NCBI GenBank assembly: GCA_030264375.1
Contig: JASCQW010000132.1
Span: 115,496,435 to 115,560,434 of the forward strand
DNA length: 64,000 bases
Origin: Carcharhinus longimanus
Lineage: Eukaryota
Direction: 5' to 3'
Shown: positions 11,938-42,497 of the stretch, one piece after another
Position numbering within the stretch: the stretch's first letter is position 1
Layout: each line of letters begins with the position of its first letter
The notes under the pieces: model-generated
Database searches by the model: none
What the model was told of the DNA's origin: nothing
What the model saw: only the letters and a program-made list of their open reading frames with translations
Position numbers and translations under genes: made by a program

Positions 11938-12460
11938 GCATTGCACAATGGTTAGTACTGCTGTCTCACAGTGCCAGAGACCTGGTTCAATTCCAACCTC
12001 AGGTGACTGTGTGGAGTTTGTTCATTCTCCCTGTATCCATCTGGGCTTTCTCTGGGTGCGCCTTCTGCACTATAGGGCTTCTATGAACCAGATTACATCG
12101 CCAGCCAAGGGCAGAAAAAATCTCAAACTCAGATCTCCCTGTTGCAAATCTTGTTGTGGCCCTTTTGTGAGAGTTTCCAGCCATAACTGGATTGGTACTT
12201 GCATTGGAGAGAGCCAGGGAATCACCCCATTAGAAAAAGCAGGTCTTAACTTTGTTTACCCATTTGGATAGCCAAGGCACCCCTTTGGAGAGGTTTCCTC
12301 CCATAGTCTAAAGATGTACAGGTTAGGTTGGTTGGCCATGTTAAATTGTTCGTTAGTGTCACAGAAATTAGTGGGATAAGATAAGGCCTGAATGTGATTG
12401 TTATCAGTGCAGGCTCAATGGTCTGAATGGCCTCCTTCTGCACTGTAGAGATTCTATGAT
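11938..12460 (+). mobile_element. HE1 V-SINE with a ~230-nt internal insert copied from 13238-13470
   Basis: The consensus breaks at tctgggtgc (12059) and resumes at ggtttcctccc (12292). Confidence 0.85.
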
Positions 12461-12473
12461 AATAACCGCTGAT

Positions 12474-12738
12474 CCCCATGTCTGTGTGGGTTTCCACTAG
12501 GTGTTTCGGTTTCTACTCACAATCCCGAAGATGTGCAGGTTAGGTGGATTGGCCATGCTAAATTGCCCCTTAGTGTCCCAAAATGTGTAGGTTAGGTGGA
12601 CTGGCCATGGTAAATGCATGGGGTTATGGGGATAGGGCAAGGGGTGGGCCTAGATAAAATGCTCCGTCAGAGAGTTAGTGCAGACTCAATTGGTGGAATG
12701 GCCTCCTTCTGAGCTGTAGGAATTTGATGGTTTTATGA
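12474..12738 (+). mobile_element. 5'-truncated HE1 V-SINE
   Basis: V-domain and tail only, no head. Confidence 0.9.
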
Positions 12739-12913
12739 TTGGATACGAATTGATGAGGATTAACAATCTCTTCTGGTCTCCGATTTCCCCTGGCATTATA
12801 TCACGCCAGCAGGTGGGAACATCTCATGTTCCTGAAGATACAACATCAAGCCAAATTGAACATGTAATTGCATGACAATCTGGTTCACACCCTCACTGGA
12901 CACTGGGCATGCA

Positions 12914-13263
12914 CGGTGGGGCAGCATGGTGGCTCAGTGGTTAGCACTGCTGCCTCACAGTGCCAGGGACCTGCATTCATTTCTGGCCTTGGGTAACTGT
13001 CTGTGTGGAATTTGCAAGTTCTCACCATGTCCGGATTCTCTGGTTTCTTACCATAGTCCAAAGATGTGCAGGTTGGGTGGATTGGCCGTGCTAAATTGCT
13101 CCTTGATGTCCCAAGGTGTGTAGGTTAGAAGGATTAGTCATGGTAAACGTGTAAGGTCACAGAGATAGGGTAGAGGGTGGTCTTGTGTAAGATACCCTGT
13201 CAGAAATTCAGTGCAGACTTGATGGGCTGAATGGCCTCCTTCTCCACTATAGCGGTTTTATGA
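12914..13263 (+). mobile_element. HE1 V-SINE, full length
   Basis: Head ggcagcatggtggctcagtggttagcactgctgcctcacag, body and tail. Confidence 0.93.
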
Positions 13264-14859
13264 ATCAGATTACATCGCCAGCCAAGGGGAAGGAAGATCT
13301 CAAACTCAGATCTCCCGTTGCAAATCTCCTTATGGTTGTTATGTGAGAGTTTCTGGCCATAAACAGGATTGGTACATGCATTGGAGAAAGCTAGGAAATC
13401 ACCCCAATAGTTAAAGCCAGTCTTAACTTTGTTGACCCATTTGGATAGCCAATGCACCCCTTTGGAGAGGTAAGGCACCTCTTTGGATATGGTTCAGGAC
13501 ACACTCGGGAGGTGTAAGATGCCATTTGGTGGAAGCAGGGTGCCCTTTAGAATTGTTAGAGTGAGGCATAGACATGCATAAAATATTCATGAACCCATTA
13601 TTATCAAGCTCATTAAAACTGTCAATAGACATGCCAAAATCACCAGTCAAAATTTTCAGAAGCATCTACCAAAGGAGCTATCAAAACTGTCAGAAGCACC
13701 TGTCAAATTCAACTGTCAAAACTGTCAGGACCACCGTTCAAAGAGAAGAGGATAAGTTTCAAAAGCATCTGTCAAAGGGAACAGACAAGCCATTTAAAAG
13801 CTCTGCTCTTTAAATATTTGAAAAAGCAATGCCTAGGATGTTAAAAAATGAATTGCCTGCTATTTCATTCTATCTATTGACATAAGCTGGAGAGATTCCA
13901 TTACTGGATTAGTGCTGTGTGACTAATTTCACAACCAACCATTATCACAGCCGGATGCTTCCCATTCCACAGTTTGATCGATAGCTATAATTGGTTATTG
14001 GTTATTTGATGTGGGATGAATTGCAATGCTTGTTAAAAGGGATTGTGCACTTGAATGAAACAATTGTTGTTGTATGGCTTTATTTAGTTAAAGAAATGTA
14101 AATGTAGTATATGTGTTTTCATGAATGAGTGTTTTGTTCAATGCAGAGAAGTCTGCAATAGACACTTAAGGCCTAGATTCTGATCTTGGATCGAATGTGT
14201 TTAGGTGGAACAATTCTTGGCTCCGTAAAGCTCACCATTAAAAATGGATTTCTTTTTCAAAGGGCAGACTAGATTGGAGGTCAGGTTCACCATCCCCAAA
14301 AAGAGTACTGGGATGTCATCGGGTGTGGGGACATGCTGGGCAGAACGTCTACTTGTGTGCTTTGACACAAGTTTTCTTTTCAAGACACAAGACTCTGATC
14401 TTCACCCCCCTCACCTCCCACACTCTCACCATGTCTCATCCGTTATGTCAGCTTATATCATGCCCCTCTTTCCCCAAAAGGATGCTGGGTGGGGAGGCTT
14501 GGGTTGGCATGACTTGGCACTATGGTCTTGTGGAAGCTATAAAGAGCCATAGAGATGGGTGGAGAGGCATAGGTTGGCATGGAGGGTATGGAGACCATGA
14601 GAATTTGATGGAGGGCCATCACATATAAAGAATCATGGGGGATTGGTTGAGGGGCATAGATTGGCGAAGGGACTATAAAGAACCAAAGTAGATGGGTAGA
14701 CACATGGATTGGCATGAGGACATGAAGAGTCATAAGGGTTGTTTTGGGGCATCGTTTGACATAAGAGGCCATAGGAAATTGATGGGGGCAAAACTTGGTG
14801 TGAGGCAGGCATGTTGTCAGGCAGAATTCAGAGTGGGTCACACGATTCCCTTCAGTCTT

Positions 14860-15510
14860 TTTCTGGTTGGCAAGACATAATGAGTGATGTGCCATAGGGA
14901 TCAATGTTGGGACTTCAACTGTTTACAAATATATAAATGGCTTTGATGAAGGATTGCACGGGATGGTTACCAAATTTGCTGATGACACAAATAGAGATAG
15001 GAAAGTAAGTTGTGAAAAACACATAAGAAGGCTACAAAAAGATTTGGTTAGGTTAAGTGAGTGAACAAAGATCTGGTAAATGGTGTATAGGGTGAAATGG
15101 TCCATTTTTTAGTGGGAAGAATAAATGATGAGCAAATGATTGGAGATCCCAGAGCTCTGAGATGCAAAGGGACCTGAGTGGCTTAGTGCATGAATCACAA
15201 AAGGCTGATGTGCAGATACAGCAAATAATTAGGAAAGCTGATAGAATGTTGCCATTATTTGTGAGGGGAATCAAATACAAAAGGTTATGCTTCAGCTGTA
15301 CTGGGCATTAGTGAGACCACATTGGAGTATTGGGTACAATATTGGTCATCTTAATTAAGAAAGGATGTAAATTCATTGGAAGCAGTCCAGGCAAGGTTTA
15401 CCAGACTGGAATGGGCTGGTTGCCTTATGACGTTGGACAGGCTAGGTTTGTGTCTGCTGTCATTTAGATGTCTAGGTTTGTCAGTCTTTGAAGTTCTCTT
15501 CCTGGAAAGA
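14860..15510 (+). mobile_element. CR1 LINE ORF2 (RT) fragment; 3' end displaced to 17371-17545
   Basis: Decayed PQGSMLG..F.IYIN and KFADDT RT motifs (aaatttgctgatgacaca) and LVRPHLEY-like sequence. Confidence 0.9.
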
Positions 15511-15513
15511 GAA

Positions 15514-17370
15514 TGGCCAGGATTCTCCCCAAAAAATTTGTAAGTGCCAAATTTGTGTAAAAGCTGGGAGTAAATCCTGTTGTTTCTTTTTGCAGGATTT
15601 TCAAAATGAATCTCCCACACTCTGTTCGTCATACAGGGCCTAACGAGACACAGAAAAATGTGTGGGCAGGGCCTGTTCCTGCTGGAGAGGTTGACAGCAC
15701 AGCACTGGATGAGCCACAATGCATGCGCCAATCTGTCATAGAGCAGATTGGTGCATGCACAGTAACCTTATACTGCGAGTTTCCCAATCACTGGCAATGT
15801 TGCCTCTCTGATTCCCAAATCCCCCCCAGTTGCTGACCACCCGGACGTCTCTGGGCTAGACCCAAACCCTACCCTGGCCCTGCCACTCTGATGGCCAGCC
15901 CCGATTGGCCCTTCCCTCCCTCTGCCCGCAATCCCAACTGCAGAATGGCAGCAGGACCGCCCACTCACAATGATCTCCCCCTACAGGCTCCGTCGCCAAT
16001 AGGCCCTGCTTCCTTTGGTCCTGCCCCCTTAGCACTGCTCAATGCCCACTGGGCCCCTGGGCAGTGCCAGGGAGCAAGCTGGTACTGCCAAGCTGACAAC
16101 GCCCAGAGGGCTCCCCTTACTCGCGACATTCTGGGTCCTCCATGGTCCCCCTTTGCTCCAGCAGGTTCAGGTCGCCTGCTTCTCGTTTGTGAAGATGTGT
16201 TCTAAACCCCACTGGAATGAAACACTCCTGGTTGGTGTGGGGTGGGAGGGACGGTGGTTGATGGGTGAGGGCTAGGCTAGTGGGCCCAGAGATTTTAGTC
16301 CCAGGCTGGTCATGTGTGATGTTAGTATGCCTTTAAGAATTTTTTTTTAAGTCATGTTCTGTATAGTTGTAGGCAGGCTTTTTGGTTTCATTGTTGCCGG
16401 GCTGTCTGGTTAGAAGTTCTTTTATTGCTGCTTCAATGGTTTAAATGGGGTTTTGCTTATCTTTACTCTGGGCCTCAGATAATTTCTGGGATCTCTTATG
16501 ACCCTACATTGTGAAGATTGACTAGTCAAAATCAGGTGGTTCCTCCCCAGAAGGATTCAAGGACTTACTTTCAGTTTTGGTTTAAAAGACAAAAACACTG
16601 TTTTTGTTGTCAAGCAATAGATAGTTTTTCTCCCTCTCTGTCCCTGATATTATAGATTCTGCTAGCTAGCTGGAAGAACATCTTCCGCTATTCCTGGAGT
16701 GGAAAATCCGGTTGGCTTGCCTGGAGTCTCTCTTTCTCCCTGGTGTTTTGGGAAGTTATTCTGATTTCAAGCTGGTCTGTGCGTATATCAAGAGGACTGC
16801 TGAAGTTACAAAGCTGGGAAGTCAGACTTTCAATTATCCAATCAAAAGACTAAGTTCCAGCATCACATGAGCATTCTGTGCTGAACCTGTGACAAGGGTT
16901 TTGTATTGAGTGGGACATTTCATATGTTTATTAAGGGTTATACAATATCATATTTTTTTGTTTGTAATTGGTAAAATCTATTGCTAATTTTCTTTCTATG
17001 CACATTAGCTGTACACTTAAATAAACTTTGTTTGATGAAAACACCCTAGTGGAATCATACCTGAAGTGGAGCATTTCATGCTCACTCTAGTCAAATTCAA
17101 ATTGCAAAACTTATGGTCCAGGCGGACTTCATAAAACACTTCGCAGTTTCTGACCTGAATTAGAACAGATGTAAATTTGAATTTGAATTTAAATATTTTA
17201 ATCAATTCCACGTTGATTTCTGATGCGAAGCTGATGATGCCGAAATTCTGGTAGCTACAAATGTGCCGAGGCTGTGGTGCCCAGTGAGAAGCCCACTAAA
17301 CAGTCTCTGCTTATGTCTCCTGGCCCGCTGCACTGCTGGAGCAACATAACAGACTAGGAGAAATACCCCC
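15514..17370. mobile_element. Non-autonomous PIF/Harbinger-type element nested in CR1, itself carrying a solo LTR
   Basis: Imperfect TIRs ggccaggattctccc / aggagaaataccccc flanked by aat on both sides. The interior is shared with 25455-26158, 33992-34640 and 39477-39867. Confidence 0.7.
16307..17167 (+). mobile_element. Solo LTR
   Basis: A ~860-nt block interrupts the GC-rich element, ends in ...gaattagaaca and has aataaa at ~17020. A partial inverted copy lies at 18562-18750. Confidence 0.65.
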
Positions 17371-17545
17371 AATATTTTTAAGGCAGAGGTGGAAAAGTTC
17401 TTGGCAAGCAAGGGGGGATAGGTTTTTGAAGGGAAGTGAGATGCAGATTTGAGGTTATTATCAGATCAAACATGGTCTTATTAAATGACAGCACAGGTTT
17501 GAGGGACTGAATGGCCTACTGCTGCTCCTTGTTTGTATGTTCATT
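17371..17545 (+). mobile_element. CR1 LINE 3' UTR/tail
   Basis: tttaaggcagaggtgg...gactgaatggcctactgctgctcc...tgtatgttc. Confidence 0.85.
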
Positions 17546-17621
17546 CCTCCTTAAATTTAAGAAAACAGTCCCAAACATAACAGTCTTACCAACTTCATAT
17601 TTGTAACAAAGGACATCTGAA

Positions 17622-17948
17622 GGTATGGCATAGTGACACACTGGTTAGCACTGCTACCTCTCGGCGCCAGGGACCTGAGTTCAATTCCCGGCTTGGGTCA
17701 CTATCTGTGTGGAATTTGCACACATTCTCCCTGTGTCTGCGTGGGGTTCCTCCAGGTGCTTTGGGTTTCCTCTCACAATCCAAAGATGTGCAGGTTAGAT
17801 TGATCGGTCATGCTAAATTGTCACTTAGCAGGATAAATACGTGGGCTACAGGGATGGGGTCTGGGTGGGTTTGTGATTGATACAGACTCGATGGGCCGAA
17901 TGGCCTCTTTCTGTACTGTAGGGATTCTGGGATTCTATGATTCTATGA
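17622..17948 (+). mobile_element. HE1 V-SINE, full length
   Basis: Head, body and (ttctatga)n tail. Confidence 0.95.
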
Positions 17949-18769
17949 ATCCATGTGCTTCAAAATGATTGACAATTACCCAAGAACATTTTTAAAATAA
18001 CATTTGTCTCATGTGCTCATTAAAGAGGAACAATCATCTTGAAAAAATATTGAGTAAAAGTTATTCATTTGCTTTAAAATATATGCTATACTGTAAATCA
18101 CACTGAAATACCTCAGTTGCAGATTGCATAACCAATCTAGATGGCACTTCTGGCTTTTTACCAACCCAAAACAAAAAACATTCTCCTTGTGAAGTTGGTG
18201 CACTTTCTGGTGAACCTTAGAAGTTTCAGGTCACTTTCTTTACTCAGTGTCAACATGAACATTATGGCTTGAACCTGCCCTCAGAAGCCCACATCACACT
18301 ATATTTTTCCAGTTCCAAGAATAAATTTCTTCACGGCTTTTCTGAATTATATTGCTAATCGAGTGCCAATTTGTGGCAAATGATTGGCAGTTGTGTTCCT
18401 TGACCTTTACCTGCTTGACTGATGCTGCCCAAAATCATTTCATTTAGAATCCTTACAGCTGGTGGCAAACAGAGACATATTCTTCACTTTTGGGTCAACT
18501 CAAAACCACATCCATGGCTGATCCACCCCTAAAATAATCCACCATCGGCTAATACTAATAGGTCATAGGTTCAGCACAGAAAATACGAATGCTCATATGA
18601 TGCTGGAACTTAGTCTTTTGATTGGATAATTGAAACTTTGACTTCCCAGCCTTGTAACTTCAGCAGTCCTGTTGATATACACACAGACCAGCTTGAAATC
18701 AGGACAGCTTCCCAAAACACCAGGAAGAAAGAGGGACTTTAGGCGAACAAACCACCAACAGCATATTTT

Positions 18770-19110
18770 CCAATAGTGCTATTGTTGCTGGATTCTTAAT
18801 CCAGAAACTCAGCTAAAGTTCTGGGGATGTGGGTTTGAATCCTGCCATGGCAGATGGTGAATTTGAACTCAATAACAAAAATCTGGAATTAAGAACCTAT
18901 TGATGACCATGAAACCATTGCCGATTGTTAGAAAAACCCATCTGGTTCACTAACGTCCTTTAGGGAAAGAAATCTTCTGTCTTTACCTGGTCTGGCCTAC
19001 GTGTGACTCCAGAGCCATAGCAATGTGGTTGACGATTAACTGCCCTGGGTCAACTAGGGATGGGCAATAAATGCTGGTGACACCGATGTCCCTTGGATGA
19101 ATATAAAAAT
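18770..19110 (+). mobile_element. tRNA-derived SINE, same family as 3615-3900
   Basis: gggtttgaatcctgccatggcagatgg...gggcaataaatgctgg tail. Confidence 0.85.
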
Positions 19111-19719
19111 AAATAATAGTGGTAGTACTGAGGGGGTTAATTATCAAGGTTAAGTAGTTTGCCCAGTTAATTTGTCGAACTCTATGGTTTAGAAGCTGAG
19201 CATTTATTGAGTCACAGGTGTGGAATAGAGACATGACAGCATACAATGGCGCATAACTTCCAATAAGCGGCGGAATGCCATGGGCTGCCAAAAGTTGTTG
19301 AATTTTTTGTGCACTTACCTGAGTTGTAAAATTGAGATCCAACACCCAAGGGGAGCAGCAGCCTTCGGTCTTTAGTGGGACAATCTCCACAGGCCCCAGC
19401 ATGTTGTGGGAGGACCCTAGCCATGCCCCTTTATGGTGGGATAGCTATTGAGGTCTAATTTTGAAACAGTAGTTTGAAAGTGAAGACAGAGAGATCAAAA
19501 AGCAATGATCATTGGCAGTAGCTTTTGACATTGGATCATTTAAAGTGTATTTTTAAATTTTATTCTTATGATTGAAGGCAAGTATTATGTAATATGTATA
19601 AATGTACAAAGATTTTGTTAATTGTTTTAAACCTCTGAAACTACTATTTAAATCTGCTTTATATTATTATATAACTTTACCTGTGGTATGCTTATATGTG
19701 TTCGTATGTTTTAATTTAG

Positions 19720-20700
19720 AATATGGAAACTGAAAATGTAGTTGGGAACAAGAGAGAGGTCAGAACTTCGTGGAACATGATTTGGATATCTTATTGCATG
19801 AGATTGAACAAAGGAGAGTTCACATTTTGGGCCGTGGAAAATCTAAACCACCATGGATTTATCATTAGTATTCTTCTGCCTTGTTTACTTCATTTATAAT
19901 TAATCATATTTAACTGTTGTGTTTTGATGTTTCAGTAAATCATTTGTATAATTTTGTAAAGTTTAATGGAAAACATTTATTAACAAAAATAATGATATAA
20001 ATACAAAACTTTGATACCATGTTAACATTTAACTAAACATTTTACTTTGGTAGCTGCACTATGTCATTGCTTGCCTCAGCTTTAAGTTTCTTACAATATT
20101 TTTTTTCTCTTTAACACAATNNNNNNNNNNNNNNNNNNNNNNNNNNNNNNNNNNNNNNNNNNNNNNNNNNNNNNNNNNNNNNNNNNNNNNNNNNNNNNNN
20201 NNNNNNNNNNNNNNNNNNNNNNNNNNNNNNNNNNNNGGACATATTAATTGTATTAATTTTACATGTAGCCTGACTCTTCTCTCATGACCTCTGCGCCTAT
20301 GTCGAAGCTTCAAAAGGATGTTAAGGAGCCAAACTGAAAGTATGGTGTACCAGTGGTGGTGGAACATGACCCCAGGTTTTCAATCTATACTGGGTTCTGC
20401 AATACCTATCAGAGATACTTCACATCAGCTTATAGGAGACTTGCATATGCCATCTTAAGGAATACATTTGTCTAAAGCATTTGAAATAGCCAAGTTGCAT
20501 ACTTCCCATTGTAAATGTAAAACTCATTTCACCCTATATCTTAAGAGGCTTCTAAGGATCAATCAGGGGTTGCATCAGTGAGACTCTTAAAATTGCTAGA
20601 AACACTGCTTACGACTTTAGAAGAAACTTCACAAATCCACTTTGACATATATGAATGGACTTCTAACTGGAATTAGCTTGTCATGACAAAGTTGTAAACA
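19720..20700. mobile_element. Decayed autonomous-type Harbinger remnant (Myb/SANT fragment on +, possible transposase fragment on -)
   Basis: 19752-19868 translates as ERGQNFVEHDLDILLHEIEQRRVHILGRGKSKPP, like the N-terminus of a Harbinger Myb/SANT (MSANTD) domain. A weak GY..WLL.P-like motif lies on the minus strand near 20300-20360. Confidence 0.5.
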
Positions 20701-20856
20701 ATTTTTAAAAATCTTTCTTTCCCTTTTTATGCATTACATATATTTTAAACATCTGCTGCCTCTACTTACTGCAGATAGAGCAGAATAAGGGTGCGTAGAT
20801 AAGTAAGTGTTAATACTCACCTAATATCAGGGCAAGTAAGAGAAGTTAGGGAGAGA

Positions 20857-20941
20857 TAAAAGCAAAATACTGCCGATGCAGGCATGTGAAACAAAAACAG
20901 AAAATGCTGGAAAATCTCAGAAGGCCTGACAGCATCTGTGG
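20857..20941 (-). mobile_element. Penelope-associated terminal repeat fragment
   Basis: aaagcaaaatactgc.gatgc...aaatgctggaaaatctcag...cagcatctgtgg. Confidence 0.65.
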
Positions 20942-20943
20942 GC

Positions 20944-21113
20944 CATGATGTAGAGATGCTGGCGTTGGACTAGGGTAAGCACAGTAAGAAATCTCACAAC
21001 ACCAGGTTAAAGTCCAACAGGTTTATTTGGTAGCACAAGCCACAAAGGCTTTTAGAGCGCTGCTCCTTCATCTGATGAAAGATGACCTGTTTGACTTTAA
21101 CCTGGTGTTGTGT
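20944..21113. mobile_element. Palindromic mini Penelope-like element (two inverted terminal pieces)
   Basis: cacaacaccaggttaaagtccaacagg ... cctgtttgactttaacctggtgttgtg, the same family as 8896-10198. Confidence 0.8.
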
Positions 21114-21629
21114 AACGCATGGGTCCTCTAAGGCCTCTGCCAATGAATGGCCCCAGCACATTCAATAAGTAAAATTACACTCAAACTACCTTGATCATAA
21201 ACATGTGCATTTATACATAACATATTATCTGTAATGTATCAGGACAACTGCCTTATAACAAAAAGAACCAACTGCATGATGATGGTAAGAACACCAAAAA
21301 CCTTCCCTCTTGCATGCTCTGTTCAAGTGATTATGTTTAAGCAAATCTGATAATTCATTTGACCAAATTATTTGATCTGACGTTTCTTAAGTTTGTTCTT
21401 GATGGTCCGCACCAAAATCATTTTGGTCTCTTCCACTCCTGCTACTAAAAGATGCTGATAGTGCTTTGCCTGTCGAATAAAAGCCTCTGTCCTAATCTCT
21501 TTCCTCTCTATTTTCTCTCTTGCATTACCTTTAACTTTATGTTTCTCATCCTCTCTCAGTTTTTTTCCCTCAACCTTTTCTATCTTTCCTGTTCTGGTAT
21601 CTGTTTAATTTCTTCATTAGCTTTTCTTT

Positions 21630-21822
21630 TACTTTGTTTCTTTTTTTTAAGGCAAGGATAGGTAATTTTTAAAACAGTAATGGAATTAAGAGTTATGGTG
21701 AGCGAGCAGGTAAGTGGAGCCGAGTCCACAGAAAGATCAGACATGATCTTATTGAATGGCAGAGCAGGCTCTACGGGTCAGATGGCCTACTCCTGCTCCT
21801 AGTTCTCATGCTCTTATGTTCT
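21630..21822 (+). mobile_element. CR1 LINE 3' end
   Basis: gatcttattgaatggcagagcaggc...gatggcctactcctgctcctagttctcatgctcttatgttc. Confidence 0.85.
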
Positions 21823-25398: not shown

Positions 25399-25454
25399 AA
25401 TTCTCTTGCTATTTAATTAGACATATTGGACAGTATTTTACCACTTTTTGTCTA

Positions 25455-28550: not shown

Positions 28551-28557
28551 TCATTGT

Positions 28558-29859: not shown

Positions 29860-30725
29860 GAGATAATAATCAGCAGTGCGCAAGTGCAAACATTGATTTC
29901 CTGAAAGACAAACGTACCAAATAAATTTATGAGAATTGTTTTTGATTGTAGCAGAGTTTTTTGAGGGTGAAGTGCTGGATATAATATAAAGATGCAAAGC
30001 TTGGAGATGAGATTAACCCAAATGGCACCAGTAATGTGAAGACCTGAGAAGCTCCGACTGTTCTCTTCAGGGAGTTTTAATTGAGGTATTCAAAGTTATG
30101 AGGTATTTTGATAGAGAAGATAGTGATAAATTGTTTATACTGGCAGAAGCATTGGTAAATCAGAAGATGCAGGTTTAAGATAATTGGCACAATAGCCAGG
30201 GGAAAGATGGGAATTTATTTTGATGCTGCAAGATGTTAATGATCTGAAATGCATTGCCTGAAACAACGGTGGACGCAGATTCAACAGTAAAGCTCAGAAT
30301 AGAAGAGAAGGGAATAGGGGCAGCACAGTGGCACAGTAGTTAGCACTGCTGCCTCACAGCACTAAGCACCTGGGTTCGATTCCCAGTTTGGGTCAATATC
30401 TGTGTGAAGTCTGCACATTCTCCCCATGTCTGCGTTGATTTCCTCTGGGTTCTCACAGTCTGAAAGATGCCGGTTAGGTGCATTGGCCATGCTAAATTCT
30501 CCCTCAGTGTACCCAAACAGGCACCATTATATGGCGATTAGGGATTTTCACAGTAACTTCATTGCAGTGTTAATGTAAGCCTACTTATGACACTAATCAA
30601 TAATCTTTAAAAAATATAGGAGGAAAATGTAGGTATGTGGTAAAGGACAGGGGAGGGACACTAATCAGATAGCTCTTGAAAGAACCAGCACTAACATAAT
30701 GGGCCAATTGGCCTTCTGTGATCCT
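29860..30725 (+). mobile_element. Old, internally deleted CR1 LINE interrupted by a V-SINE
   Basis: Decayed EVFKVMR..DR motif, WN.LP-like aaatgcattgcctg and tail ctcttgaaagaaccagcac. Confidence 0.7.
30318..30608 (+). mobile_element. V-SINE with alternative tail
   Basis: HE1 head/body plus ggattttcacagtaacttcattgcagtgttaatgtaagcctactt tail. Confidence 0.9.
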
Positions 30726-31020: not shown

Positions 31021-31345
31021 TCTCCCAAAGAGTCCAAGGTGCTGTTTTTCCTTCATGCTGTAGTCCCAGAGCTCTGGATGGTGATGGTAGTGGCTCCAAT
31101 TTTCTCTCCCGCTCTTACTACTTGCCATTGGAATGATTTACAGGTTGATACTCAACCTATTTGGCCATGTTATGAACGCACCTTCCTTTGCCACAAAGGC
31201 CTGGAGTAAGTCTTGAACCTAGAGTTTCAGGCTCAGAGGCAGGAACACTACCCATTGTGTTACAAGACCTCCTCCAAAGTCACATTTTGCATACAAAATA
31301 AAAACTAATAAACCAGTATTCAAATGAAACAACTGATGGAAGAAA

Positions 31346-31690
31346 TAGTGGCACAGTGGGTAGCACTGCTGCCTTGCAGCACCAGGGACCCCAGTTCCAG
31401 CCTTCGGTGGCTGTCTGAGAGAATTTGCACATTTTTTTCTGTCTGCATGGGATTCCTCCGGATGCTCTGGTTTTCTCCCACAGTCCAAAGATATGCGGGT
31501 TAGGTGGATTGGCCACACTAAATTGCCCCTTAGTGTCCTAAGGTGTTTAGGTTAAGTGGATTAGCCATTGGAATGATTTACAGGTTGACACTCAACCTAT
31601 TTGGCCATGTGCGGGTTTACAAGGATAGGGCAGAGGGGAGGGCCTGGGTGGGATGGCATCTTTTTGCACTGTAGAGATTCTATTATTCTA
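31346..31690 (+). mobile_element. HE1 V-SINE with a 47-nt insert copied from 31124-31170
   Basis: Head, body and tail are present, with non-consensus sequence at 31564-31610. Confidence 0.9.
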
Positions 31691-32340: not shown

Positions 32341-33333
32341 CCAGGGTTGGTGCTTTACAAGTGGCTGGGTGCCCACAACAACTCCCCCCCTCAAATACAT
32401 TTCTGCCATCTCACTGGGCCTGCTAGACTGGCCCTGGCGAAACTGCTCCATTGACCTTGCAGTTCAGCCATTGTGTTATGAAATATAATCAGTCTGATGT
32501 CACATTTGACTAGCTGTAGTGATATGACTCTGCCATGAGGCAGGCTCACTGTGGGCTGCCGTTTCTAATCAGTCCAGTGAGGCCTCTCACTGAGAAAAAC
32601 TGATGATGCACTGCCGTCCTCAAACATGAAGCATGGTGCCTGAAAGTGGGCAGAAAACAGATTTCTGAATCCGGCAAACGCTGCAGAGAAGACATTAAAA
32701 ACCCAGGCACACACAAAGGTATAAATCTTCAAACAAAAGCTGCTGCACTGAGGGCAAAGAAAAAGCAAACAATGGCTGCAAGTAAAATACTGGCGACAGA
32801 AAAGTAACAGCCAAGAAAGGCAGGCAGAAAAGTTCAAATCTTCAGAAAATTACAGCAAAAAGACGACGGAAAACCAAACCACAAGCCCCTTCAAAGTGTA
32901 TTTTGCAAACCACTATTATGTTCCAAAACATCTGCAAAGAATGTTACTTTGTTTACAAAGATCTCATCTGCACATGACACACAAGCAAGGAAAGCAGATG
33001 TGCATTTCAGCCATGCTATTGAGAACAGTACTCCTCTTGTGAAGAATTTCGAGGGTGCTACAATAGACTGCTGAATCTTCCGGATTTAACGTGAAGCAAT
33101 ACCAGATCTAATTTGGAAGTCAGCAATCCCACAGAGACATTGGGTGGGTTTTTCTGGCCATTGGCTGATGGCAGGATTTTCCAGTCCTGCTAACATGACC
33201 ACCTGCCTTGAGGCGGATTGAATAGGAAATCCCACTGACAGCAGTGGGACCAGAAAATCCCACCACTGGCTAATGCCGAGGCCCCTCCTGCTGCCAAGAA
33301 GCACACCACGGGCAGCACTGAAAATCTCACAGC

Positions 33334-33945
33334 TTGAATCAAACAGACAAGCACCTAACTCAAATCAGGCAAATTATCCAGCAAGATGCAAGTCTCCAAG
33401 TGATGCATGAAGTAGAGATGAAAGAATGGCCTGAGAGCATCATGGATACGTCTGTGGTCACCACAGCCTACAGGGCAAACCGAGATGAATTAGCAGCCCA
33501 AGATGTGCAAAGGAAATGGACTCATCATCCCAAAGGAATTGTGAGGAGTGATGCTGAAGCACATCCATGCAAGCCATCAAGGAATTGAGTGACTCTGAGA
33601 AAGGTAGGACTCTACTGGACAAACATGAACAATGAAATGGAAGACCACATTGACCAGTGGAGTGCATACAATGAGTAAGAAGCTAATCAAGCTAGAGAGC
33701 TGTTGATGATACATGACATCACAAACAGACAATGGATAAAGCTGGGAGTAGACCTTTTCACTTTGGCAGGAACTGATTATCTTGTCACTGCAGTCGACTA
33801 TTCCGACACTGAGAGTTAGACCCCTGACTTCAACTATGATAGGAGGAATAGTAGAAGGCTTGAAAATACACTTCAGCTGGTATGGCATTCCAGACAGTGT
33901 GATGTGTAACAATGGCCCGCAGTTCACAAGTGAAGAATTCAACTT
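33334..33945 (+). pseudogene. Frameshifted Gypsy pol (integrase zinc finger and core)
   Basis: QIRQIIQQDASLQVMHEVEMKEWPE...RDELAAQD, HIHASHQGIE and YGIPDSVMCNNGPQF lie across shifting frames. Confidence 0.85.
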
Positions 33946-33991
33946 AGAACATAAGAAATCACAAAGGATTGGGAAATTCATCACCATACAT

Positions 33992-34640
33992 TGGGCAGAA
34001 TTTTATGCCAATAATTCTAAGTGTCCCGCTAATGTGAAAATGGGAGGGTTCCTCATCCGTTTATTGGGAAGGCTTTCACGCTCAATCTTGTGTATTTAGT
34101 GCATGGAAAAATGGTCTAGGCCATTTTCAGCTGCTGCAGGCAGTGGGCTGGGCTTGATTCGCCAGCCAACCTGCAGAGGAAGTTGTTGTGCATGCACAGA
34201 CCATTGATTCTACACATCTGCAACAGCAACTGCAGGGGTCTGACAGACAGAAAGAGAGCCGTCAGGCCCCTGCTGTTGCAAGTAGTCTCAACAAACTCCC
34301 CTCCCACAATTGCAGGGACCCATGGACGATCATAAGCCCCACACCACCCGAAATGACCCCACTGCCCCTACTGCTGCCCAGACCAATGCACCCCCCTCCC
34401 CACATCAATTGCATCTACAGAGCAGCAGCAGGCCCTCCTCCCCTGATCTGTCCCAGGCAGAGTGTCAGAGGGACTCCCTCTTCCTTGATCAGGTCCCAAC
34501 CACCTCCAGAGGTCTCACTGCATAGGCCTCCNNNNNNNNNNNNGGCCCCATAGGCCCTGTCCACATAAGTTCTGCCCCCTACAGGGCCCGTCTCCTGGCA
34601 GGTGCCCAGTGGGCATTACCAAGGTGCCAGACTAGCAGTG
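33992..34640. mobile_element. Harbinger-type non-autonomous element nested in the Gypsy element
   Basis: Starts gggcagaattttat; the interior is shared with 39477-39867. Confidence 0.65.
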
Positions 34641-35439
34641 AGAAATTGTTAACTCAATCATGCACAGGAGAAGTGAATAGCAAAATATACTGATGCAATC
34701 GTAGGCACATTGAGTCAAATAGTGAAGCTGTTCCTTCACAGCAATTGACCAGTCAGTGAGAAAGAATTACACCAGTTGCACTGAATATAGATCACAATCA
34801 ATCAATCCCACAGGTCCACCAGTCCCCAACAACTGCAGTGGAACAACATCAGTCAAAAAAGCAACAAGGGCCACAGCAATGTGGGTAACTTGGGTAACTC
34901 ACAGGATTGTGTATGTAAACATGCCTTTTGTCCACTAGAAAAGGGGCATGTTAATATCTTTTGTTTGCTACAGAAGAGGGTACGTTTGGGTTGTGAAATG
35001 TAATCAGTTTGACGTCATATTTGACGCTGTCATCATGTGACTCTGCCATGAGGCAAGCTCGCTGTAGGTTGCCGTGTCTGATCAGTTCAATAAAGCCTGT
35101 CACTGAGAAGCAGTTATGATGAATTGCTGTCCTTTAACATGAAACAGAATCCATGCTGACCTTTGTGAAGGGCTGGCTGCAGTCCCAGTGGGCCACTGCT
35201 CTGAGGCAGGATATCTTTCCAAACAGGGGCCGAAGCCACAACATAAACCAAAATAGGCTGATGCTGTAAAGTCATACCTTTCTGGACTGATGAAGGCCCT
35301 GATTTTTCAGCTGGGGTAGTGTAGGGTGAGGAGGGGGTTGTGGGGCTGGGGGAGGGGGCAGTGTGGCAGGGTAGGGGTGGGTGGAAGGGTCAAGACCACT
35401 GCCTCCACAAGGAAATCTGATCACAACTGATTTCATGTA

Positions 35440-35765
35440 AAAGACAGAGAAACTTTTCCACTTGTTGGGGAAGAGCAAATCTCGTAGTCATAAACATAAG
35501 GCTAATAAATAATAACAAGTAATAAATCCAAAAGGAAACTCAGGAGAAACACCTTCACCTAAAGAGTGATTAGAGTATGGAACCTGCCATCAGAATGGTG
35601 GCTGAGATGAACTTTAATGAGAAACTGGAAAGGCACAGAAAAACAAAGGAACACAAGGTTATGTTGACAGGGTTAGCTGAAGGTATAAGTTACGTACAGC
35701 ATAAACATCACATAGAGAAGACAGGCTGAATGGCCTGCTTCTGTGTTGTACATATCACGTATTTC
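35440..35765 (+). mobile_element. CR1 LINE 3' fragment
   Basis: LFPL.G.S motif and tail ggctgaatggcctgcttctgtgttgta. Confidence 0.75.
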
Positions 35766-35769
35766 AGGT

Positions 35770-37025
35770 TAGTCAGCATGGATTTGCTAAGTGAAATTCA
35801 TGTTTGTCAAATTTTTGAGGAGGTAGCCAGAGGTGTTGATGAGGATAATACGGTCTAACTAGGCTTTTACAAGGCTTTTGATATGGTCCCTCATGGCAGA
35901 TTGGTTAAGAAAGTAACAGCCCATGAAATACAAGGCAAAGTGGCACATTGGATCCAAAATTGGCTGAGAGACAGGAAGCAGAGGGATGTTTCAGTGACTG
36001 GACGTCTATTTCTAATGGGATTCCACAGGGTCCGATGCTGAGGCACTTGCTATGTGTGGTGTACATTAATTATTTGGACTTAAATGTAGGGGATAGGAAC
36101 AAGAAGTTCATGAATGACACCAAAATTGGTAGGGTGGTAAATAATGAGGACAATAGCCATAGACTGCAGGAGGATATCAATGTACTGGTCAGATAGACAG
36201 AGCAGTGGCAAATGGAATTCAACCTGGGAAAGTGTGAGGTAATGCATTGAGGAGCCTAACAAGGCAAGGGATTACACTATGAATGGTAGGACGCTGGAAA
36301 ATACTGAAGGTCAGAGGGACATTAGAATCTATATCTACAGATCCCTGAAGGTAGCAGGGCGGGAGATAAAGTGGTTAAGATAACATATAAGATATTTGCC
36401 TTTTTTTAGCCGAGGCTAAGAATACAGAAAAAGTGAGGTCATGAAGGAGCTGTGTGAAATGCTAGTTAGGATACAATTGGAGTGCTGAGTACATTTCTGG
36501 TCACCACATAATAGGAAGGATGTGGTTTCACTGGAGAGGGTGCAGAAGAGATTCACCATGATGATGCCTTGCATGGAGGGTCTGAGCTATGAGGAAAGCT
36601 TATATAAGCTGGAGCTGTTTTCCTTGGAGCAGAAAAGGTTGAGAGGGGACCAGATAGATGTGCATAAGATCATGAGGCGCATAGATAGGATGGATAGGAA
36701 GGCCCTTCTTCCATTAGCAGAGGGGTCAGTAATCAAGGGATCATAATTTAAGATTAGAGGCAGAAGTATAAGAGGGGAATTGAGGAGAAACCTTCTCACT
36801 CAGAGGATGATGGGAGTCTGAAACTCACTGCATGAGAGGGTGGTTGAGTCAGAAACTCTCATAACATTTAAGAAATATTTAGACATTCATTTGTGCTGCC
36901 ATAACCTCCAGGTCTATAGGTTAACCACTAGAAAATGAGAATGTGTAGTCAGATCTTTATTGACCAGCATGGGCACAATGGGCCGAATGGCCTCTTTCTG
37001 CGCTGTAAATGGCGATGAATCTATG
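35770..37025 (+). mobile_element. 5'-truncated CR1 (HER1-type) LINE, RT through tail
   Basis: KAFD.VPH, GIPQGPML..L.VVYINYLD, KFMNDTKIG, WQMEFN..KCEVMH and LERVQKRFT; tail gggccgaatggcctctttctgcgctgta is shared with HE1. Confidence 0.93.
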
Positions 37026-37861
37026 TACTGTCATGGAGGGATTTAACTTTGTGTCAATGTAGCAAGAGTGAAATTGTGTTGTGGAACAGAAAATGTACTG
37101 ATATGAAGAGGGGAGCTTTGTTACTTCTGTCTTCTTGTGTCCAAACCAAGGATGCAGAAGTGACAGTAAGTCTAAATACTGTACTTAATTAGAGATGAAG
37201 GAAGGGAAATCTGGAGACAAGAGATTTTTTTTCTGCTGAGGGCATAGTTCATAGAAAGCAGATACTTTGAATACTGTGGAAACAAAGACATTCTAGAATA
37301 ATATGTAGAAACAGCTTTCATTTTCCATTATGTCCAAATAGCCTAAACAGTGACAAAATTAACCATTTTGGTGTTTTAAAATTTATTCCCTTTTTGAATA
37401 TCTAAAAGCTATTTCTATAGCTATTTCAAAAACTTCTCAATCATAAATTGGATCCTGAAAGGTTGAATTGTAAAACCCTTCTGTTGTGCTTTTACAAATT
37501 CATATTAGATTACAGTAAAAATGTTCTCATGACACATTAATGTAGGTTTAAAAAAATCTTAAAGGATCATTATTTGGTAATAAGATACAGTTGGCATGAA
37601 GAAAATTCTGTTTCAGCACTACATTATGATAACATTTACTGTTTATATTATCGTTCCTTATGCAGTCCATATTTTTCTTCATCAATAAATTAGGCCAATC
37701 TTTTACTCTAGCTTATATATACAAAAAGAAGTTGAATTTATATAGTGTTGTTATTATAAAGGAATGTACTAAGGAGCTCTGCTGGGGGATTTAACAGAAG
37801 CAATTGAAAACGCTTTCAGAAGTTGAGTTGTATTAAGGATTTTTGAAAGATTAAACAAAAG

Positions 37862-38245
37862 ATTTGCATTAATGTAGCACCTTTCATATTTATATCGCAC
37901 AGTTCTCTACCTCTGATGAATTTGAGGTGTGGTCTTTCTTGTAACATAGGAACTGCCACAGTGCAATTGCATACTTCCACAAACTTCAATGAAATAATGA
38001 CCAGGTCATCTGCTTCAGTGTGTTTAATGATATGGCCCTGGGAGAACTTTACTGTTTTTCTTCAACTGGTGCCATAGGATCTTTCCTGTCCACCTGAAAT
38101 GGCCTCTGTTCAGCATCTCATCTTTAAGGCAGCACCTTCAACTGTGCAAAAATTCCTCAGTACTGCAATGGACCTTCAGACCAGAGTTTATGCTTAGTGT
38201 TTTGGGGTGAGACTTGAACCCACAACTTTCTAACTCTGTGGGAAA
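37862..38245 (-). mobile_element. Deu-domain SINE (SacSINE1/AmnSINE1-like), near full length
   Basis: Minus strand shows gggttcaagtctcacc, cagtactgagg..tgcacagttgaaggtgctgcc, aagatcctatggcac and tail aaaggtgctacattaatgcaaatc. Confidence 0.8.
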
Positions 38246-38249
38246 GGAG

Positions 38250-38690
38250 GTAGAGAGTCTTCAGAGGGATTTCTGGAACGTAAAACTGGCATGGCTGCAA
38301 GTGCTACTGCCAGTGTGATAATGTGGAAATGGTACTTCATGCAGCGCAGGATTCAAATAGTATGACTTTGAGTGATTTAGAGTTTACCAAGGAAGGCTTG
38401 CCTGAACTTGGAAAAATAGACACGAATCTTTTTTGTTGTTTCTGTGGATGGCATCCCTGGTGGAGTAGGGCTTTACTCCACCACAGAAATTGTCAATCCT
38501 AGCTGATCTTTTGGGGTCATGAAGCCTTGAGAGGTGACTTGAGCATGGATAACGGGCTCGGCAGCAATGAGGGTGAGGTGGATGTGGAATTTGGCAATGA
38601 TCTGAAGGTTGAAAGTAAATAATCTTGGTAAATCCAGTAGTTTAAATATCAACATTAAGCAAAGCCTGAGGATGTAGACAAAGATGGAGT
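38250..38690 (-). mobile_element. Old L2-type LINE fragment
   Basis: Minus strand AAEPVIHAQVTS resembles L2 AE.LIHAFVTSRLD. Confidence 0.6.
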
Positions 38691-39476
38691 GTGTGTATTT
38701 GTGTCTATATGGCCGGGGGGCTGCGTGAGTAATATCACTGGGGAAGGGGCAGATTTATACTAAATCTTGTGGCTGTATGTTTTATGTCGGCCTCACTGTC
38801 AGTTCCTGTGGACTTTTACTAGAATGTAGATTAGTTACGTGCTTAACAGTAAATAACTGTGGAAAGGATTGGATAAGCTGATGATTGCAGAGCTCAAATT
38901 CATTTGGTTAAGTACAGCTGCAAGCACTAAACGGCTAAAACCTCCATTCAAATACTGTACACTTGTGGCAAGAAGCACCTTCCCTCAATAAGGCTAAAAG
39001 CAATGTCGGTATTGTGCAGTACGTCCTGAGAATGTATATCAGACATGGACAGATTAGGAATAACTATTTGGATTGTTAACCTTGTTGATACTGATGCTCC
39101 ATTTCCCTTCTCTTTTAGGTATAGTTATGTGAAAACTGGAAAATTTCAATTGACCTAAATTTCTATACGATCAGCCTACAGGGTAAAAAGTAGTCAATGA
39201 AACAGCAAGAGAAGAGGTTGCCCCGATTTCTTCTTTAATTCTCTGTCCAAAGGCAAAGCGCCATGATTTTCTTTTACAATTAGCTTGAAGAGGCAGAAAC
39301 TGAGTTTACCTCAGCCAGAACAGCCCTGTGCTGTTGGCATTAATCTGATCCATATGCTAGCCACTGAGCCAAGTGTTTAAAGGGCAACAAAATGTCCCAA
39401 ATTTTATACAACTAAAATTTAAGATGAAGTTATGTTGAAAGTTCTAGCGGTTTATCACCTTTAAAGTACTGATACA

Positions 39477-39867
39477 TTGGATGGAACTTTACAAGATTTT
39501 TTTGAAGTGTACAGGTAGCATGAAAATGGGAAAGTTGCAGATTTATTTCTTGTGCAAATTTTCAAGCCCAATCTTATGCATTCTGTCCCTGAAAAGATGG
39601 GCTAGTCAGTTTCTAGCCAGAGAGGCTGTGGGCTGGGTTTAATTTGCCAGCCAGCCTGTAGGGGGATGTATTGCGCATGTGCAGACTGCTGTGCATGCGC
39701 ATTAGCAGTAACAGGGCTCTAATAGACAGAGAGAGAGCTGTCAGGCCCCTGCTACTGCAGGCAGCCTCAACTAGATAGCCCTCCCCTGCAATCGCAGAAG
39801 CTCGTGACCCAAGATGCAGTCCCTGCTGCACCCGCCCCCCTACCCCCACCACTGCCCAGACTGATCG
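39477..39867. mobile_element. Harbinger-type non-autonomous element, cut by gap
   Basis: Paralog of 33992-34640. Confidence 0.65.
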
Positions 39868-39968
39868 NNNNNNNNNNNNNNNNNNNNNNNNNNNNNNNNN
39901 NNNNNNNNNNNNNNNNNNNNNNNNNNNNNNNNNNNNNNNNNNNNNNNNNNNNNNNNNNNNNNNNNNNT

Positions 39969-40424
39969 GTGCCAGGGACCCAGGTTCAATTCTGGCCTCG
40001 GGTCACTATCTGTGGAGAGTTTGCACATTCTCCCCATGTCTGTGTGGGTTTCCTCCAGGTGCTCCGGTTTCCTCCCACAGTCCGAAAAATGTGCGTGTTA
40101 AGTTGATTAGCCATGCTAAATTGCCCCTTAGATTCCTGGGTTGTAGGAATTGAACCCAGGTCCTTGGCACTGTGAGGCAGCAGTGCTAACCCACTGTGTC
40201 TCCCATTCAATGTGGAATAACTCATTTCCACCTTTACTCAACACCTGGCTAATATAAGGACATGTAAGGCTCATTTTCTATCATTCTATGAAACTGAGCT
40301 GGAATACAATTAATTGAAGGGTAAATATGTGGTGTTATGGGGATAGGGCTTAGGTGAGATTGTTGTTGGTGCAGGTTCGATGGGCTGAATAACCTTTTGC
40401 ACTGAAGGGAATCTATGATTCTAT
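39969..40424 (+). mobile_element. HE1 V-SINE with a ~170-nt insert copied from 41448-41645
   Basis: Body to ~40140, insert, then the tail resumes at gggtaaatatgtgg (~40319). Confidence 0.85.
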
Positions 40425-41168
40425 GGCCACCTTACTGTAGACAATAACTTTAAATAATGCACAACCTGCAATATTTGAGTAGTCTGGTTATTATGATATG
40501 TTAACTTACAGAATAACTTACAGAATTGTCATTAAATATATAAGATTATAATAAGTTAATTAGTTTAGTATTGTGAAAATAAATTACAGGAGACTTGAGA
40601 ATCTGTGAAATATCAAGCCACTAGCAATACTTATTATTATAATAGCTCTGTTCGTCTGTATAATTGCGAGAATATAAGAATGATATTCAAAACGTACCAC
40701 TGAAATGTCCTTTATCTTTGCTGCGTGTGTATCTAAAGTAGGTGGACTTGTATCACACTGCAGGTACAATTTGTGTTTATTAGTTCAGTCCAACATGTCG
40801 GCAGTATAAAAATTGGTTTCGCAGCTTGTTTTTTGCATCACATTCTGAAGCATTACCTCATAATCTGGCAGGATACTTAAACAATACAATTTGTTACAAT
40901 TTGAGATTTTTCCACCCCGGAACAGATCGTGGTTAATTTAATCACTGTGGAATTAACTGAGGGTGTATTCATAGAGGAAGGGAGGGTACTGCGCACAGTT
41001 ATCTACAAGTACCCTGCACAGAATTTTCCATCGTTCATTTTCTTTTCCATAGTATATTTCTGTCCTCTGTTTCCTGCCTGTCACTCAATTTTCCTGATGT
41101 GTTGCCGACATCAATGCTCCTTCACCAACCGTAAACATGAGCGTCCCAACGCCTCACCGTCTGAGTGT

Positions 41169-41500
41169 CATAGAATCCCTACAGTGCAGAAAAGGCCAAT
41201 CAGCCCATTGGGTCTGCACCGACTGTCTGACAGAGCTCACCGCCTGTCCTATTCCTGTGATTCCACACATTTATCATGACTTATCCATCAAACCTACACT
41301 TCTTTGGACACTAAGGGGTAATTAAACAAGGCCAAATCACCTAACCTGCAGATCTTTGGACTATAGGAGAAAACTGGAGCACTTGAAGGAAACCCATGCA
41401 GACACAGGGAGAATGTGCAAATCACACTCAGACTGTTGCCCAAGGCTGGAATTAAACCCAGGTCCCTGGCACTGGTGCTAATCACTGTGCCACCACCCCA
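41169..41500 (-). mobile_element. HE1 V-SINE, full length
   Basis: Tail, body and head on the minus strand. Confidence 0.93.
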
Positions 41501-41603
41501 CTCATTCAATCCCATTCAGTGTGGAATGACTCATTTCCACCTTTAGTCAACACCTGGCTGATATAAGGACATGTAAGGTTCATTTTCTATCACTCTATGA
41601 AAT

Positions 41604-42497
41604 GGGGCTGAATTTTACACTGGGGGTTGGAATACAATTAATTGATTGCAGCTTGATGTTCTGCCCCCATTGCACAGGGCTCTGGGAGCTGCTGGCCATC
41701 AAATAGGACGGTGGCTCCTGTTAGGACTACATGCACTCCCATGAAGAAGATGAGCCAGGAATAAATTAAGTCCCAGAACTTGCTGGGACCAGACTGGCAG
41801 GCCCTGATCAGAGCATGGGGGCCAATCTGGACAGGGCACAGGAGGAGGTGGATACATTGATGGATGGGGGCTAGGGAATACTTTGGCGGGATATCCAATG
41901 GGCAAAGCAGCTCAAAAAGTAGGCCTCCCCACCCCCCCCATTGGCCCAATACCATTGCCTTGCCTCCATATCCCCAATCCCCATTGGCCCCACCCTGACA
42001 CACCCAACATTGGCTCAGCCCCTGGCACTGTCCAGTAGATGGTGCCAAGGTGCCCAGTGGTCATTTCCCAGGTGCGAAGCTGACATTGCCATGGTGCCAG
42101 TCTGGCAGTACCCAAGGGCCACCACCACCTTACACTCGGCCTCCCCAGGGGGTCTCAATGGCCTCCTGTTCCATCAGCAAGGCCAACATGACTGTTCCCC
42201 CTTCATGGGGAGCAGGTGCTTTGCTTGCCAGAGAGAACCTCTCCCTGCAAGGCCATAAAGGCAAACAAGCCCAGATGTTTGAACGCAGGCTCGCTAAACA
42301 GAAAAATCAAAACAGTATGATTGAAACAGCTGATTAAATAAATTAATCAGCCTCTTGCATTTCCAGCGAGAGGGTGACTGCGTTGAAACTTGCGCAAGAA
42401 GCTCGAAAACAGGTGCCATTCCCACTCACCAATTTAACCTGATTTCACATCATTTTCCTGTGCAAAACGGGTGTAAAGACGTTGCAAAATTCTGCCC
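41604..42497. mobile_element. ~900-bp Harbinger-type non-autonomous element with both TIRs
   Basis: TIRs gggctgaattttaca / tgcaaaattctgccc around a GC-rich interior. Confidence 0.75.

Follow-up and report, generated by a model that had tools for sequence, protein, structure and literature searches.

Three copies of a SINE in a stretch of 64,000 nt from Carcharhinus longimanus (GCA_030264375.1, contig JASCQW010000132.1, positions 115,496,435-115,560,434 of the forward strand; hereafter the window) are interrupted in mid-element by a copy of DNA from the neighborhood. This observation, made in the original prediction, holds, whereas the SINE-specific reading given to it there fails; the inserts were most likely left by the ordinary repair of DNA breaks, a process that has already been described in other vertebrates.

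The host repeat is putatively HE1, a name adopted from the original prediction, and the HE1-like consensus sequences were built in this analysis. The elements were mapped as Smith-Waterman pieces instead of by chaining of BLAST fragments, which yielded 222 chains, the majority of them false joins because the SINE has an internal repeat. The chaining also passed over gapped or long inserts and missed the second of the three cases, and its sensitivity was therefore incomplete. The window contains 22 HE1 pieces with a 5' end and 25 with a 3' end, which makes the predicted number of roughly 25 copies a fair one. The window has three open frames of 150 codons, and none of them matched a Pfam family.

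Three interrupted SINEs and their donors

All three inserts were recovered where they had been predicted, each in direct orientation relative to its donor; the features given here are on the forward strand unless stated otherwise. In case 1, the 5' part of the host SINE (11940-12060) extends to about consensus position 138 and is followed by the insert (12061-12294) and by the 3' part (12292-12460), which starts from consensus position 139. The donor (13238-13471), which is 86% identical to the insert over 235 nt, opens in the tail of a neighboring full-length SINE (12920-13266), and the insert consists of about 25 nt of this tail followed by about 208 nt of the 3' flank of that SINE. The host of case 2 (5' part 31345-31568; 3' part, internally deleted, 31611-31690) carries an insert (31564-31610) that matches its donor (31124-31170), located within another interspersed repeat, at 46 of 47 positions. 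In case 3, the 5' part of the host (39969-40145) starts directly next to a gap of 100 N, and the insert (40146-40317) and the 3' part (40318-40425) follow. Here, the donor (41448-41645) opens in the head of a neighboring full-length SINE on the reverse strand (41168-41495), and the insert combines this head, in reverse-strand orientation, with the 5' flank of the same SINE. Insert and donor are 83% identical over the first 164 columns and 91% within the unique portion of 101 nt, and several indels of 7-20 nt separate them. That inserts 1 and 3 begin in a piece of an adjacent HE1 copy and continue into its flank is absent from the original prediction; two of three donors with a piece of a neighboring SINE is above the 12% predicted from cover, in a sample of three.

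The donors, which had been placed 0.4-1.3 kb away, lie at distances of 943, 393 and 1146 nt in cases 1 to 3. The consensus was said to resume almost where it stopped, and it does so with a loss of about 0, 5 and 14 host nucleotides, respectively, as read by eye at the junctions. The short microhomologies that had been noted are 2-5 nt in length: CTCC to the left and GGT to the right in case 1, where one base of the left motif has probably changed since the insertion, GCCAT and ATGT in case 2, and about 2 nt at the left junction in case 3. No poly(A/T) was found at the three inserts, and their pre-insertion (empty) sites can be putatively reconstructed from the consensus alone. Ordinary 3' transduction, in which the flank follows a whole element at the new site and ends in the tail repeat, was rejected, in agreement with the original prediction: the inserts are in mid-element, that of case 3 has a 5' flank and there is no HE1 at the donor of case 2.

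Searches of the inserts against the 2.68-Gb genome, in one direction only per case, identified the local partner as the best non-self match in all three cases. The local donor of case 1 matched over the full length, as compared to 11 other, partial matches of 72-81%, and the donor of case 3 was the sole other match (two-copy). The sequence of case 2 is itself a repeat with 118 candidates in the genome, of which 40 were scored; among these 40, the local partner was the best, with 98% over 47 nt, and the others reached 86-95% over 39-52 nt and, in one instance, 100% over 32 nt.

The junctions of case 1 were also examined in short-read contigs. At a likeness of 80%, the aligned contigs were swamped by other SINE copies, and pieces from two runs alone were usable. 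A 323-nt contig from run X20, which may be the source sample, spans 12000-12322 without differences and crosses both junctions, with 61 letters to the left and about 30 to the right, narrowly missing a 31-letter rule. A contig from run X8, whose organism code is a different one, shows 14 differences over 12041-12233 and has only 20 letters to the left of the junction. No orthologous empty site was seen for case 1, the X8 contig of this relative holding the insert.

Age of the inserts and frequency of local pairs

The original prediction had called for a comparison of insert-donor divergence with SINE age. At non-CpG sites, this divergence is 13.1, 2.1 and 8.9% in cases 1 to 3 and 10.2% in one case on C81, as compared to 27, 23, 16 and 34% expected if the inserts were copied at integration (P = 5e-7, 8e-5, 0.037 and 4e-10). 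The test depends on the consensus built here: if the divergence of the youngest 5% of the family (7.6%) is used instead, case 2 alone remains significant (P 0.006; others 0.07-0.32). With one difference in 47 nt and a host that is 12% from the consensus, case 2 is decisive. The inserts thus postdate their hosts and differ in age among themselves, which is robust for case 2 and consensus-dependent for the rest.

We surveyed local pairs in 1.551 Mb of non-N DNA from nine chromosomes, the window included. Pairs less than 50 nt apart (n = 5) were outside the survey from the outset. Of 68 pairs, 17 were near-identical sequences flanking gaps in this gappy assembly and two were longer than 400 columns; these 19 were removed before counting. 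The remaining 49 pairs comprise 23 direct and 26 inverted pairs, and the same-orientation pattern of the window is thus not general. Their mean distance is 1,012 nt (90th percentile 1.7 kb), and the mean length is 139 nt (42 pairs of at least 50 nt). In the window, pairs outside HE1 are an inverted pair at 16710-16893 and 18562-18753 (87%), which likely stems from the same process as the three inserts, a direct pair at 32471-32633 and 34986-35146 (80%) and an inverted pair at 61899-61943 and 62084-62135 (85%). Nine background pairs were searched genome-wide: six are strictly two-copy, one is a local best match among old repeats and two are ordinary repeat copies. TIRs or LTRs were ruled out as the origin of the six, for which no third copy was found, although an absent match does not prove rarity.

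Three of about 25 copies had been considered frequent. Outside the window, one of 43 pairs is firmly inside HE1 and two more abut an HE1 end, as compared to 2.8 expected at an HE1 cover of 6.55%, which indicates no enrichment, with an upper 95% bound of 2.0-3.4-fold that leaves room for a 2- to 3-fold effect. The excess in SINEs is thus unconfirmed beyond the window, where their rate is that of background local duplication, an outcome that the original prediction had itself named as contrary to it. The window is extreme: 3 of its 22 copies are interrupted, whereas the other DNA surveyed has 1-3 among 308 (Fisher P 0.001-0.005; Poisson P 0.0005-0.002), and we argue that it is probably the selected tail among about 42,000 windows. 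A regional hot spot was rejected: 174 kb of non-N flanking DNA contains four pairs, none firmly in HE1, and the blocks do not differ significantly (chi-square P 0.21).

Break repair as the probable origin, and its alternatives

We consider it very probable that the inserts are neighboring DNA that was copied into resident SINEs during germline double-strand break repair. A break would fall by chance within a SINE, and the resected 3' end would pair through 2-5 bases with either strand of DNA lying no more than about 2 kb away. It would be extended by 50-250 nt, by SDSA-type synthesis or polymerase theta, and then released. A second microhomology would join the other end, with 0-14 bases lost and the donor left intact, and the SINE would merely be the ruler that makes the insert visible. 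The junctions may reflect SDSA-type repair of a double-strand break, which PMC2671141 likewise deduces from such junctions. Local templated repair of breaks was the second of two alternatives offered originally, and it fits.

The first, a jump of the CR1 reverse transcriptase of the partner LINE off the SINE RNA onto DNA or RNA in the vicinity, followed by a return, such that insert and SINE arrive together, would account for the resumption of the consensus within 0-14 nt. A block on C98 (141468-141536), where 69 locally copied nucleotides directly adjoin the 5' end of an HE1 with a 5' truncation, would also fit such a capture. In four of four cases, however, insert and donor are less diverged than expected at integration, decisively so in case 2. 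Of the 43 pairs beyond the window, 40-42 are not in HE1, and among all local pairs the two orientations are equally common; the jump is therefore unsupported and in our view highly improbable. An artefact of assembly, or chance adjacency of dispersed repeats, has in its favor the gap-edge pairs and the high copy number of case 2, but is scarcely credible given inserts that diverge by 2-17% from donors that are their best matches (among the 40 scored in case 2) and, for case 1, the exact short-read contig and the insert in another organism.

Attraction of events to SINEs, by fragility or by SINE-SINE pairing that joins donor and break, would give a modest real enrichment, and the window excess and the start of donors 1 and 3 within a neighboring SINE point in this direction. 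The consensus positions are nevertheless out of register, with the break at about 138 and the donor at about 325 in case 1 and opposite strands in case 3, and therefore no SINE homology primes the jump. The comparison of HE1 with other repeats stands at 3 versus 3 (P 0.08) if counted most generously and at 1 versus 3 (P 0.56) on the firm count, and we regard attraction as unlikely, though less so than the other alternatives. Replication-fork template switching (FoSTeS/MMBIR, serial slippage), or tandem duplication followed by deletion, would need no free two-ended break. From the layouts, a direct insert with short microhomology is formally equivalent to a forward-and-back slip, and all three window cases are direct. 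Yet simple slippage and tandem duplication do not yield inverted pairs, which are 26 of 49, and it would be rare for two independent events to restore a SINE so closely (0-14 nt) in three instances. One-step fork switching would be compatible with the sequences, but such origins are on the whole very unlikely.

Comparison with known systems

Repair of breaks by local copying is the preferred reading, and similar products are known. Templated insertions by polymerase theta are likewise copied from nearby DNA into a break by microhomology priming, in either orientation; they are mostly shorter, and their donors mostly lie no more than about 100 nt from the break, as compared to 0.1-2 kb here. 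Doublets, short paired duplications with near-identical copies of less than 100 nt (Thomas et al., cited in PMC2671141), are also local, non-tandem and ascribed to imperfect break repair, whereas the pairs described here are longer and 2-29% diverged. HE1 is a V-SINE of sharks and rays with HER1 as partner LINE (PMC4824008, PMC3747384), and the host repeat resembles it in being a SINE of about 330-355 nt with a tRNA-like head; the passages of these papers on HE1 do not mention inserts. Literature searches, judged by the entries listed, gave nothing on point about templated inserts in SINEs or template switching at retrotransposon insertions. By title and abstract opening, and outside most subscription journals, no paper on repair-mediated duplications (RDs) in sharks was found.

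The closest match is to the RDs of Pace, Sen, Batzer and Feschotte (2009; PMC2671141), which were found as repeats interrupted by inserts of at least 50 nt, with a donor at 50 nt to 5 kb on the same chromosome that is the sole other copy or the reciprocal best match, and with the consensus resuming within ±30 nt. Their junctions have microhomologies of 2-9 nt and deletions of 1-15 nt (Table 1). The three cases agree in distance, resumption, microhomology, small deletions and lack of poly(A). Cases 1 (about 230 nt) and 3 (about 170 nt) also agree in size, whereas case 2, at 47 nt, is just below the cut-off. In the one-directional searches, case 3 is two-copy, case 1 has a local best match with 11 weak partial ones, and case 2 has a repeated donor for which the local copy is best; case 2 would fail the published filters. 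The mean distance (1.2 kb in human, 1.0 kb here) and length (162 and 139 nt) are similar, as is the occurrence across repeat classes, each contributing according to its abundance; in non-HE1 repeats, we identified 4 RDs among 62 interruptions.

A SINE- or reverse transcriptase-linked route of shuffling would have been new, and the tests give it no support. The remaining result, a known class of repair scars in a lineage beyond the original survey, the species list of which (Table 3) is without cartilaginous fish, is of modest importance. For each Mb of repeat DNA, the published RD densities are 0.62 in human, 0.19 in zebrafish and 0.08 in chicken (PMC2671141), as compared to about 6-8 here (95% interval 1.2-20; about 17 per Mb overall), obtained with a similar, not identical pipeline and set against the human value as published. 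Extrapolation from an unselected sample (about 17/Mb × 2.68 Gb) suggests tens of thousands of copies genome-wide, which would be enough to measure how far away donors lie, which strand is used and how break repair compares with point mutation in a vertebrate that evolves slowly. It is conceivable, at slightly less than even chances in our judgement, that sharks have about 10 to 25 times as many RDs per Mb as human over a similar range of copy divergence. Copying by break repair would then follow a clock uncoupled from their very slow point-mutation clock; in cartilaginous fish it would be among the leading sources of short local duplications, and its donors would reach no further than a sharp limit near 2 kb.

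Inserts and donors in the window

Self-comparison of the window (G000:C132:115496435-115560434, in an assembly of 2.68 Gb) recovered all three insert-donor pairs at the positions given in the original prediction, namely 12061-12294 and 13238-13471 in case 1 (86% identity), 31564-31610 and 31124-31170 in case 2 (46/47 identical), and 40146-40301 and 41448-41610 in case 3 (83%), the last of which continues with indels to about 40317 and 41645. Each insert interrupts a SINE of about 330-355 nt that we take to be HE1, a name adopted from the original prediction; the consensus used was built here, with subfamily consensus sequences derived from 140 near-full copies. HE1 is a V-SINE of sharks and rays, the partner LINE of which is HER1 (PMC4824008, PMC3747384). 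Four copies (7477-7778, 30317-30617, 42567-42859 and 58756-58919) combine an HE1-like 5' part of 205 nt with another 3' part, about 90-100 nt long, that they have in common, and are possibly a separate SINE family. Two SINE-in-SINE nests were also observed, one at 56823-57445, where a plus-strand copy is split by a full minus-strand copy (56887-57216), and one at 53816-54478, which encloses a gap.

Templating from neighbouring DNA, as originally claimed, was borne out by a genome search, in which the local donor was the best non-self match in all three cases. For the case 1 flank, the insert was matched at 86% across all 208 nt, and 11 further places matched at 72-81% over partial length only, while the unique part of the case 3 insert had its donor as the sole match. 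The case 2 insert is a repeat fragment with 118 candidates, and its best non-self match among the 40 scored was the copy 393 nt away. Support from read contigs covers case 1 alone, with an overhang on one side of less than 31 letters in both contigs: one from run X20, which may be the source sample, showed 0 differences to 12000-12322, and one from X8, a run with another organism code, carries 12041-12233 with 14 differences.

Microhomologies and losses were read by eye from the aligned junctions. In case 1, CTCC in the host corresponds to CTCC in the donor at the left junction, with one base probably changed since, and GGT is common to both at the right, with 0 host bases lost. Case 2 has GCCAT at the left, ATGT at the right and a loss of about 5 nt; case 3 has about 2 common nt at the left and a loss of about 14 nt. 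Inserts 1 and 3 start inside a neighbouring SINE and run on into its flank, but this SINE part is out of register with the break, and SINE homology thus did not prime them. A further local copy on the same contig (block 73265-73440 / 74597-74774), located outside HE1 and 27 kb upstream of the window, likewise consists of flank and SINE head, as in case 3.

Local pairs and HE1 across the sample

The added sample of 1.8 Mb comprised the two 100-kb flanks of the window plus a 200-kb block from each of eight other contigs, taken at round-number positions, giving 1.551 Mb of non-N DNA including the window, 6.8% of it HE1. From 2,556 same-block pairs at most 60 kb apart, those were kept in which the local partner exceeded every other match in the sample. 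Across this 1.55-Mb sample from nine contigs, the locally specific pairs cluster below 2 kb with almost none farther, and the reach of copying has a sharp limit near 2 kb. Per kb of distance, there were 17 pairs at 1-2 kb (both strands), 2 at 2-3 kb and less than 1 past 10 kb. Removal of 17 gap-edge artefacts and 2 long pairs from the 68 pairs at 50-5,000 nt left 49, of which 6 are in the window; 23 are direct and 26 inverted, with a median length of 105 nt, a mean distance of 1,012 nt and identities of 71-99%. An identical 70-nt pair at 47861-47930 and 48031-48100, on either side of a 100-N gap, is a scaffolding overlap artefact of the same kind as the 17 removed from the sample. Every fourth (9) of the 35 pairs of at least 60 nt outside the window was checked against the genome: 6 were strictly two-copy, 1 was local-best among old repeats and 2 were ordinary repeat copies.

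A SINE-linked excess of local inserts, as originally suggested, did not hold up outside the window, where 1 of 43 pairs lies within HE1 (contig C81; inverted donor; two-copy) and another 2 directly border an HE1 copy at one of its ends, versus 2.8 expected. The 95% upper bound on HE1 enrichment is 2.0-fold for a count of 1 and 3.4-fold for a count of 3. Non-HE1 repeats (0.42 Mb) contained 62 interruptions, comprising 4 local-copy inserts, 54 nested repeats and 4 unexplained. Since the count at HE1 is close to expectation and inserts occur in other repeats too, HE1 is a marker rather than the cause. Inserts were present in 3 of 22 HE1 copies in the window versus 1-3 of 308 elsewhere (P 0.001-0.005), but with a per-window P of about 0.001 and some 42,000 windows, dozens of equally extreme windows are expected; no hot spot was found in the 100 kb on each side. 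Elsewhere, a 5'-truncated HE1 is adjoined at its 5' end by 69 nt (L151:1468-1536; G000:C98:30141468-30141536) copied in inverted orientation from a site 3.2 kb away, reflecting either head-removing repair or capture at integration.

Age of the inserts and proposed mechanism

Had insert and SINE arrived jointly, insert-donor divergence at non-CpG sites should be about twice the divergence of the host from its ancestor. Host divergence from the consensus is 15.0, 12.4, 8.2 and 19.6% in cases 1-3 and the C81 pair, and insert-donor divergence is 13.1, 2.1, 8.9 and 10.2% versus 27, 23, 16 and 34% expected (P = 5e-7, 8e-5, 0.037 and 4e-10), with the caveat that host age is overestimated to the extent that the consensus is imperfect. 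When the family median (11.7%) is used, P is below 0.001 in all four; with the youngest 5% of the family (7.6%), case 2 alone is significant. These divergences indicate events of unlike ages, at least one far younger than its host. Copying was later than integration, firmly so in case 2.

The inserts arose by conservative copying of nearby DNA from either strand, with short microhomologies, small losses and no preference for HE1. The process would start with a germline double-strand break, after which a resected end may invade a template within about 2 kb, and 50-250 nt would be synthesised before the end is released and rejoined. At the sequence level, SDSA, polymerase theta and one-step fork switching would look alike.

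Comparison with repair-mediated duplications

The inserts are real, were correctly seen in the original prediction, and are most likely a known kind of repair scar that is not SINE-specific. Pace, Sen, Batzer and Feschotte (PMC2671141) define repair-mediated duplications (RDs) as repeats split by an insert of at least 50 nt with a donor at most 5 kb away, and this interrupted-repeat signature is that of the window inserts. The 824 human RDs have a mean length of 162 nt, a mean distance of 1.2 kb, microhomologies of 2-9 nt and deletions of 1-15 nt, and RDs occur in every repeat class, in proportion (PMC2671141). Cases 1 and 3 agree with that paper in length, distance and junctions, whereas case 2 behaves alike but would fail its length and two-copy filters. 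Cartilaginous fish are absent from its Table 3.

Outside the window, 37 pairs of at least 50 nt in 1.49 Mb correspond to 25 per Mb, a density that falls to about 17 per Mb when scaled by the 6 two-copy pairs among the 9 genome-checked. Repeat DNA only gives 3-4 in 0.52 Mb, or 6-8 per Mb (95% interval 1.2-20; one of them genome-checked). The published RD densities in repeat DNA are 0.62 per Mb in human and 0.19 per Mb in zebrafish (PMC2671141); our 6-8 per Mb is set against the published human figure, and pipelines and definitions of repeat DNA differ. A higher RD density than in human is thus a lead, and the remaining question of interest. In the epaulette shark, the mutation rate is 7e-10 per base per generation (PMC10587355). 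At such a rate, the same amount of divergence takes many more years to build up than it does in primates, and if breaks were repaired equally often per year, more copies per unit divergence would result. This slow clock may account for the high density.
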